Shown here: positions 28,323-28,666 of the stretch, piece by piece
How positions within the stretch are numbered: the stretch's first letter is position 1
How the letters are laid out: every line of letters begins with the position of its first letter
From: Bordetella parapertussis
GTDB lineage: Bacteria; Pseudomonadota; Gammaproteobacteria; Burkholderiales; SG8-41
Direction: 5' to 3'
Length of the DNA stretch: 64,000 nucleotides
NCBI GenBank assembly: GCA_945861275.1
Contig: CAMATZ010000017.1
Span: 9,753 to 73,752, forward strand
The notes under the pieces: model-generated
Told to the model about the DNA's origin: nothing
What the model saw: only the letters and a program-made list of their open reading frames with translations
Database searches by the model: none
Program-made: the position numbers and the translations under genes

Positions 28323-28666
28323 GATGCGATGGCCGAAGGGCAAGGCAGGCGCCTGCAAAGCGCTAAGAGCCCCTAACACAGTGAAACCCATGCTGCGTTG
28401 TGTCCAAAATCGGTGGTGGCGCGAAGGACGCGGCAGGCCATATCGCGAATATGGACAACACGTCCGACAAAGCCAGCGCCGATTTTGGGCACAACCCGGA
28501 GGGCTGGCGCGAGTTTTGCCCCAGGGCTTTGTCGCGCGCCTTGCAAATATTCGCGATATTGGCTGCGGCGCGCTTCGCGCCCTGAGCCAAAATCGTGCCA
28601 GCGCAGCATGGGTTTCATTGTGTTAGGGGCTCTCATATTCCGGTTCGAATCCGGATTGCATCTCCA
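28323..28666 (+). tRNA. tRNA-Cys(GCA)-like gene interrupted at the variable-arm position by a 266-bp palindromic element
   Basis: The 5' half 28323-28364 has acceptor GATGCGA, D-arm and anticodon arm GGCGC-CTGCAAA-GCGCT. The 3' half 28639-28666 has T-arm TCCGG-TTCGAAT-CCGGA, acceptor TTGCATC (complementary to the 5' acceptor), disc T and CCA. Confidence 0.4.
28367..28632. repeat. 266-bp composite palindromic element: 31-bp terminal inverted repeats (30/31 match) flanking two internal sub-palindromic ~100-bp hairpin units
   Basis: Left end GAGCCCCTAACACAGTGAAACCCATGCTGCG. Right end is its reverse complement with one mismatch. Both DNA strands translate to mirror-similar spurious ORFs. MITE-like. 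Confidence 0.8.

Follow-up and report, generated by a model that had tools for sequence, protein, structure and literature searches.

A tRNA-Cys(GCA) gene interrupted at its variable loop by a probable MITE in an L-array-type tRNA island

The interrupted tRNA genes most similar in appearance to the one described here are those with group I introns in bacteria and bulge-helix-bulge (BHB) introns in archaea, where, as at our locus, an insert in the range of ~200-270 nt splits the gene and the exons still form a cloverleaf. A second comparison is offered by the Correia elements of Neisseria, the ERIC/IRU elements of enterobacteria, and the palindromic elements of Rickettsia, which resemble our insert in being small, non-coding, and dispersed, with terminal inverted repeats and a short AT-rich target duplication; when co-transcribed, the whole element forms a hairpin, and such elements can enter genes. 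RNase III cleaves the long duplexes in transcripts of bacterial MITEs such as the Correia elements. Among insertion sequences, IS5 includes the IS1031 group, which was originally discovered in acetic acid bacteria, has GAG termini, and makes 3-bp duplications. Duplication of a 3-bp TWA/TNA target site is the hallmark of the IS5/PIF-Harbinger (PHIS) superfamily (PMC4482050), which together with the Tourist-like MITEs shares both this duplication and terminal inverted repeats with the element reported below. Finally, L-arrays (Santamaria-Gomez et al. 2021, PMC8421152) are supernumerary tRNA arrays that spread horizontally, occur in linkage with rtcB and a homing endonuclease, and readily undergo insertions and deletions; frequent insertions are reported there in general, and not a MITE within a tRNA gene.

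The window, by which we mean the whole 64-kb stretch of DNA that was analyzed, contains a tRNA array of this last type. ARAGORN and Rfam place about 22 tRNA genes on the forward strand at 27027-31153, and an RtcB RNA ligase gene is embedded among them (29048-30268, forward strand; PHROG tRNA splicing ligase, E = 6.6e-143; PF01139), which we describe for context only. Upstream lies an HTH_26 regulator on the reverse strand (26332-26673), and downstream lie an SPFH/Band-7 gene (31427-32572) and an HNH endonuclease gene (32654-33217), with the complete island spanning 26332-33217. The likeness to L-arrays (PMC8421152) extends to some 22 same-strand tRNA genes packed into ~4 kb, the linkage to rtcB and HNH, the HTH regulator upstream, and a patchy presence with decay among close relatives; unlike them, the array of the window sits in a proteobacterial metagenome-assembled genome (MAG) and is also accompanied by the SPFH/Band-7 gene.

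The same set of island genes is found in four related sequences, L148, L149, L150, and L153, with relatives differing in tRNA content. Three close relatives (L154-L156, 5799-7564; GCA_945864585.1 and two ENA contigs) carry a reduced island at the same chromosomal site, made up of a 93-residue C-terminal remnant of RtcB abutting a TctC fragment, four tRNAs, and HNH. Judging from these sequences, this lineage is losing the array. The host locus is thus an L-array-type tRNA operon with variable content and partial loss in relatives, and by analogy with L-arrays its tRNAs are probably supernumerary and horizontally acquired. A similar sign is visible in the window itself: the tRNA-Thr(TGT) gene at 28241-28314, directly upstream of the interrupted gene, has C33 and a G27-A43 mismatch and is missed by ARAGORN, and its ortholog in L149 is canonical, with neither C33 nor the stem mismatch. 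These defects suggest that selection on the array of the window may be relaxed.

The gene of interest lies between tRNA-Thr(TGT) and tRNA-Phe(GAA). Its 5′ part (28323-28366, forward strand), delimited from the sequence, contains one acceptor strand, the D-arm, the anticodon arm, and the first bases of the variable loop, and its 3′ part (28633-28666, forward strand) contains the trinucleotide TCA, the rest of the variable loop, the T-arm, the other acceptor strand, the discriminator U73, and an encoded CCA. The halves read as an earlier note on this DNA had claimed: 28323-28364 gives the acceptor GATGCGA, a D-arm, and the anticodon arm GGCGC-CTGCAAA-GCGCT with anticodon GCA, and 28639-28666 gives the T-arm TCCGG-TTCGAAT-CCGGA, the complementary acceptor strand TTGCATC, the discriminator T, and CCA. 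Both are still flawless in sequence. The last bases of the 5′ part, TAA at 28364-28366, are the left copy of a presumed target-site duplication, and the TCA that opens the 3′ part is the right copy, with one mismatch to TAA. Everything between them is inserted at the variable loop.

On the native sequence (28323-28666), neither ARAGORN nor the Rfam gathering search called a tRNA, and about 20 neighboring tRNAs were found. Once the insert was deleted, ARAGORN called tRNA-Cys(GCA) on essentially all spliced versions, including both versions that lack the element and one 3-nt flank; removal of the element and one flank leaves a variable loop of 5 nt. The split tRNA-Cys gene with its palindrome is confirmed as an observation and is not a product of chance. 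From 28509 onward, the window matches an independently made Logan assembly (L025) at 100% identity; that contig ends mid-palindrome and therefore confirms that the right half of the element is joined to the 3′ half of the tRNA.

The element itself (GAGCCCCTAACAC...GTGTTAGGGGCTC) occupies 28367-28632 and is a non-coding, imperfect palindrome of 266 nt, assigned to no strand and ~71% identical to its own reverse complement. Its terminal inverted repeats measure 35 nt with 94% complementarity. The left repeat (28367-28400) forms the outer stem of the hairpin by pairing with 28599-28633, and the right repeat (28599-28632) is recognized both by its complementarity to the left one and by its conservation in the family; like the internal features, neither is assigned a strand. 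Inside the outer stem, the minimum free energy (MFE) fold places a left sub-hairpin at 28399-28493, with arms at 28397-28420 and 28472-28495 and the tip motif CCATAT-CGCGA-ATATGG. The right sub-hairpin (28504-28601) is found in the MFE fold and as helix 6 of the family alignment, and its base is conserved and its interior hypervariable between subfamilies. Alternatively, 28418-28474 could pair over a long range with 28525-28581 and so turn the element into one long rod. The palindrome, its terminal repeats, and the two sub-hairpins at the variable loop, all first proposed from the letters, are seen in the sequence and in the fold alike.

When the whole unit was folded as a 347-nt RNA, the predicted free energy was -203.1 kcal/mol (z = -13 against shuffles). 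The predicted MFE structure retains the acceptor, anticodon, and T helices and extrudes the element as a single branched hairpin at the variable loop, in agreement with the intact tRNA core and giant hairpin that had been suggested. A continuous 31-bp stem starts at the junction between tRNA and element, flanked by a single unpaired nt in the 5′ direction and by 5-6 unpaired nt in the 3′ direction.

We rejected an intron or a ribozyme as the identity of the insert. No Rfam family, introns and ribozymes included, matched it at E ≤ 10, and the Rfam E-value search gave only a below-threshold partial tRNA match and a chance sRNA match. Specifically, there was no match at E ≤ 10 to Intron_gpI on either strand or, over 28230-28760 on both strands, to ribozyme families (hammerhead, twister, hairpin, HDV-like, and others), a search that covers described families, and the predicted fold has no bulge-helix-bulge (3-4-3) at the junction of tRNA and element. 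The insert differs from group I and BHB introns in its place in the variable loop instead of the anticodon loop, in showing no detected group I core and no BHB, and in its recurrence at many non-tRNA sites with target duplications. The earlier note had also set aside an anticodon-loop group I intron and an archaeal BHB intron. We likewise rejected a class II tRNA, as a long variable arm is not a feature of this isoacceptor and the orthologous tRNA-Cys has a loop of 5 nt.

Copies of the element were sought within and beyond the window, with different outcomes. The 64-kb window holds a single copy, and the expectation of others failed there; outside it, the expectation was borne out by a second copy and a large family with target duplications. 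A search with 21 nt of the terminal repeat as the pattern led to the second copy (L026, 7124-7389), which belongs to a Betaproteobacteria MAG and is 92.5% identical over its full length (266-268 nt); it is intergenic, directly upstream of argS, and flanked by TAA...TAA. The terminal repeat is present in at least 120 metagenome stretches, many times at contig ends, and some contigs have two copies (several among the matches listed). Complete elements range from 83 to 580 nt, with clusters at 264-267, 296-298, and 445 nt, and the smallest forms (83-85 nt) are reduced to the terminal hairpin. Across the family, the first ~26 nt of the terminal repeat are conserved (90 ends). As found here, the family inhabits soil- and sediment-type metagenomes and occurs in MAGs of Alpha- and Betaproteobacteria.

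The flanks of 50 distinct complete copies read T-W-A on both sides. TAA (22) and TTA (14) lead on the left and TTA (20) and TAA (14) on the right, with other trinucleotides making up the remainder, and the two 3-mers are identical in 23 of the 50. In 40/50 copies the left and right trinucleotides agree in their middle base, compared with the ~45% that we estimated from the flank counts. If the inverted repeat simply reached further out, the two middle bases should be complementary; their sameness therefore indicates a direct 3-bp target-site duplication. We also excised all 50 copies in silico: only the window copy restored a tRNA (none of the 49 others was in a tRNA gene), and tRNA genes are therefore not a preferred target. 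In the window and L026 copies, both strands can be read through the element as open reading frames, which raised the idea of a small protein encoded by the palindrome. This was rejected, since both strands are open in only 5 of 45 family copies; copy lengths in the family differ by non-multiples of 3.

What the family does retain is its fold. The subfamily of 262-267 nt was compared in 11 copies: 97.7% of the cells in predicted helices are paired and 19 pairs have changed on both sides, values reached in none of 500 shuffles, and pairing falls to about 35-43% in slid controls. Helix 1, formed by the terminal repeats, is 98.5% paired in these copies, and helices 2-4 of the left sub-hairpin account for 14 of the pairs that changed on both sides. 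This pattern of substitutions indicates that the hairpin architecture of the family is maintained, and it would fit a folded form in either DNA or RNA. In one subfamily G-U pairs outnumber A-C pairs by 58 to 4, an excess shown neither by the family as a whole nor by the window copy. Copies are divided in the strand that their fold prefers, with 13 favoring one strand and 19 the other. A strand-specific fold was accordingly rejected as a sign of RNA function: across the family, the lower energy falls now on one strand and now on the other, and for the window copy the two differ little.

An orthologous tRNA gene for comparison is found in L149, whose RtcB is 89% identical to that of the window. 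Its gene order, Arg(TCT)-Met-Thr(TGT)-Cys(GCA)-Phe-Gln-Pro-RtcB-Trp-Asn-His-Lys-Arg(TCG), matches the window over the common stretch, except that the window adds a tRNA-Ile(GAT) after Gln and before Pro. The L149 tRNA-Cys is uninterrupted, scores 47 bits against the Rfam tRNA model, and has a variable loop of 5 nt (TTCAT). Window 28068-28364 aligns to L149 2947-3253 at 88.7% identity, taking in the 5′ part of the intact tRNA-Cys, and the alignment resumes from window 28637-30578 to L149 3257-5201. There are 272 nt between the two blocks in the window and 3 nt in L149, and the difference is therefore the 266-nt element plus a 3-nt duplication. For this copy the duplication is imperfect (TAA on the left and TCA on the right), and the L149 loop TTCAT is too diverged to tell which of the two was the original target.

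In sum, the element is a mobile sequence without coding function that is present in many copies across metagenomes and duplicates T-W-A on insertion, and the orthologous site is empty. Its features are those of a MITE: a length below ~600 bp, no coding capacity, terminal inverted repeats, many dispersed copies, and an empty orthologous site, along with a target-site duplication that is seen at the level of the family and is imperfect for the window copy.

Our preferred explanation, to which we assign a probability of roughly 0.88, is that a tRNA-Cys(GCA) gene of a supernumerary, horizontally acquired array received a 266-bp MITE in its variable loop, with duplication of 3 bp. The element would be a non-autonomous, cut-and-paste DNA transposon that entered T-W-A within the 5-nt loop and duplicated 3 bp, moved by a DDE transposase presumably supplied in trans. 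Loss of the tRNA-Cys gene would have been tolerated because L-array tRNAs are extra copies. Any transcript would carry a near-perfect duplex of ~31 bp at the variable loop, a potential substrate for an enzyme of the RNase III type, and the interrupted gene would most likely be inactivated and yield no usable tRNA-Cys. The neighboring RtcB is a normal companion of such arrays, with no link to the element. Of the origins that had been proposed from the sequence, the MITE in a tRNA gene is the one upheld, by many dispersed non-tRNA copies with 3-bp T-W-A duplications and by the uninterrupted, syntenic tRNA-Cys. A new kind of excisable intervening sequence found no such backing, and neither did a structured RNA riding on a tRNA, given that the insert has no intron or ribozyme match at E ≤ 10 and the family has no preference for tRNA genes.

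As to the source of the transposase, the TWA/TNA duplication by itself points to the IS5/PIF-Harbinger superfamily. Unlike the described members of that group, the family yielded neither a transposase nor a full-length element bounded by its termini: no autonomous partner turned up in the window, the 120 metagenome loci, or the plasmid and phage collections. One contig (L094) has an IS4-like gene beside a MITE end and was considered as a parent insertion sequence; it was rejected as unrelated, and no transposase was found between a widely spaced pair of terminal repeats. Compared with the Correia, ERIC/IRU, and Rickettsia elements, the family differs in its sequence and termini (GAGCCCCTAACAC...), in a 3-bp T-W-A target instead of TA, and in its larger size (266-300 nt is typical) and modular construction with two sub-hairpins and nested insertions.

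Among the alternatives, we weighed a working chimeric RNA, in which a tRNA-Cys with a giant variable arm functions as such or a structured RNA uses the tRNA as a scaffold or processing handle in the polycistronic transcript. The tRNA core kept in the predicted fold and the conserved pairing of the family would both suit this idea. However, tRNA-Cys belongs to class I and the variable loop of the ortholog is 5 nt, the structure travels with the mobile element to any site and is not tied to this locus, the strand preference is inconsistent across the family, and among the 50 complete copies the one in the window alone is fused to a tRNA; we consider a chimeric RNA very improbable. Equally speculative, and in our judgment a long shot, is that the MITE-bearing tRNA-Cys is still used, with the hairpin cut or removed from the RNA (e.g. 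by RNase III or an island nuclease) to give a functional nicked or re-ligated tRNA, or with the element acting as a processing or insulator module in the polycistronic transcript of the array. If this reading were true, the family would be a mobile structured RNA and not inert DNA.

A stricter form of RNA-level removal would have the palindrome cut out as an intervening sequence by a host or island nuclease and the halves rejoined, perhaps by RtcB, into a functional tRNA-Cys. It draws on the intact exons, the normal cloverleaf with an extruded insert in the predicted fold, the covariation of the hairpins across copies, and the RtcB tRNA ligase gene in the same array, 380 bp downstream. Against it, the same element, bordered by target-site duplications, occupies more than 100 loci outside tRNA genes and only the window copy among the 50 complete ones interrupts a tRNA, the L149 ortholog lacks it, no intron or ribozyme family matches it and no bulge-helix-bulge is found at the junction, and RtcB accompanies such arrays with or without a MITE. 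The chemistry is also unfavorable: RNase III leaves a 5′-phosphate and a 3′-OH, and RtcB needs a 3′-phosphate or 2′,3′-cyclic phosphate plus a 5′-OH, so that RNase III ends could not be joined by RtcB. We therefore regard excision and ligation as exceedingly improbable. An assembly artefact, i.e. a repeat-induced chimera or fold-back that placed the palindrome in an intact tRNA gene, is hardly credible even though the window is a metagenome-assembled contig and the Logan contig breaks mid-palindrome, as the palindrome is too imperfect (~71% self-complementary) for a fold-back copy, both flanks come from the same syntenic locus, the right junction is exactly reproduced in the independent assembly, and the insert is exactly one element plus 3 nt long.

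Taken as a MITE insertion, the locus is an ordinary transposon event in a spare tRNA-Cys gene and not a new tRNA intron. A MITE inside a tRNA gene is an unusual sight, but it is a known kind of event, and it is important to note the caution it carries: a striking “split tRNA with a giant hairpin” is here a transposon in a dispensable gene copy and not a new splicing system. It also gives a concrete case of decay in horizontally acquired tRNA arrays. Since tRNA finders miss interrupted genes, anticodon inventories of such arrays can be too low.

The element family appears to be undescribed and unnamed. It has no Rfam match; the phage and plasmid collections gave no match to the element, and the plasmids gave none even with the terminal repeat alone. 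The terminal-repeat string was absent from the open-access PMC and bioRxiv full text searched, and the open-access PMC/bioRxiv literature gave no obviously relevant title on MITEs in bacterial tRNA genes. The family is of interest in its own right as an abundant, apparently undescribed, and currently mobile group of MITEs in environmental Proteobacteria, with conserved hairpins and nested insertions.

Several observations concern variation within this family. A 297-nt MITE (L054, 9212-9508) and a 445-nt version (L086, 3033-3477) occupy the same genomic site in different metagenomes, and L087 and L093 likewise share one site with a short and a long version. The long versions of the L086 type have an extra palindromic module of ~148 nt inside, and the flanking MITE sequence is 100% identical. 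By its sequence, the module has the appearance of another small element nested within the first, which would imply very recent mobility. A different MITE of ~265 nt with other terminal repeats (GGCCTGTTAACAATTAATTCG) is present in L154 (5451-5714); it has an inner hairpin core (…GCAATATTCGCGATATTGC…) in common with the element of the window, and an internal hairpin module may have been exchanged between MITE families.

Solo copies of the terminal repeat were found at the starts of two genes (L088 1390-1425 and L137 94-115), where an internal ATG is the apparent start codon. In L088 the gene is bamA, directly after the stop codon TAA of rseP, and the first 33 nt, and with them the initial residues MKRAMRW, are MITE-derived; in L137 the gene encodes a sensor kinase.

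Other observations concern the island and its surroundings. We considered a phage origin, since a tRNA array with RtcB at first resembled a jumbo-phage locus, and rejected it: searches of phage collections gave weak RtcB matches, the RtcB relatives on viral contigs come without a syntenic array, and the neighbors in the window are genes of bacterial metabolism (gabD, CoA-transferase, acyl-CoA dehydrogenase, MFS transporters). On two viral contigs (L001/L002, 10001-11934), the RtcB match spans 1934 nt, compared with about 1220, and this length suggests an intein or other insert in the gene; the same contigs also carry a tRNA with a CTA anticodon (amber suppressor-like). The L150 island adjoins rve/AAA_22 transposition-like genes and toxin-antitoxin genes. 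Elsewhere in the window, spaced short BLAST matches at 37262-37717 correspond to 108-nt periodic repeats in a Sel1-repeat protein gene (36921-38117), an ordinary repeat protein. Within the array, the tRNA at 31007-31080 has an anticodon loop of 6 nt (CGCAAT) and scores 57 bits with Rfam, and ARAGORN reports its anticodon as undetermined; related arrays give the same call at L150 8190-8263 and L151 4552-4625.
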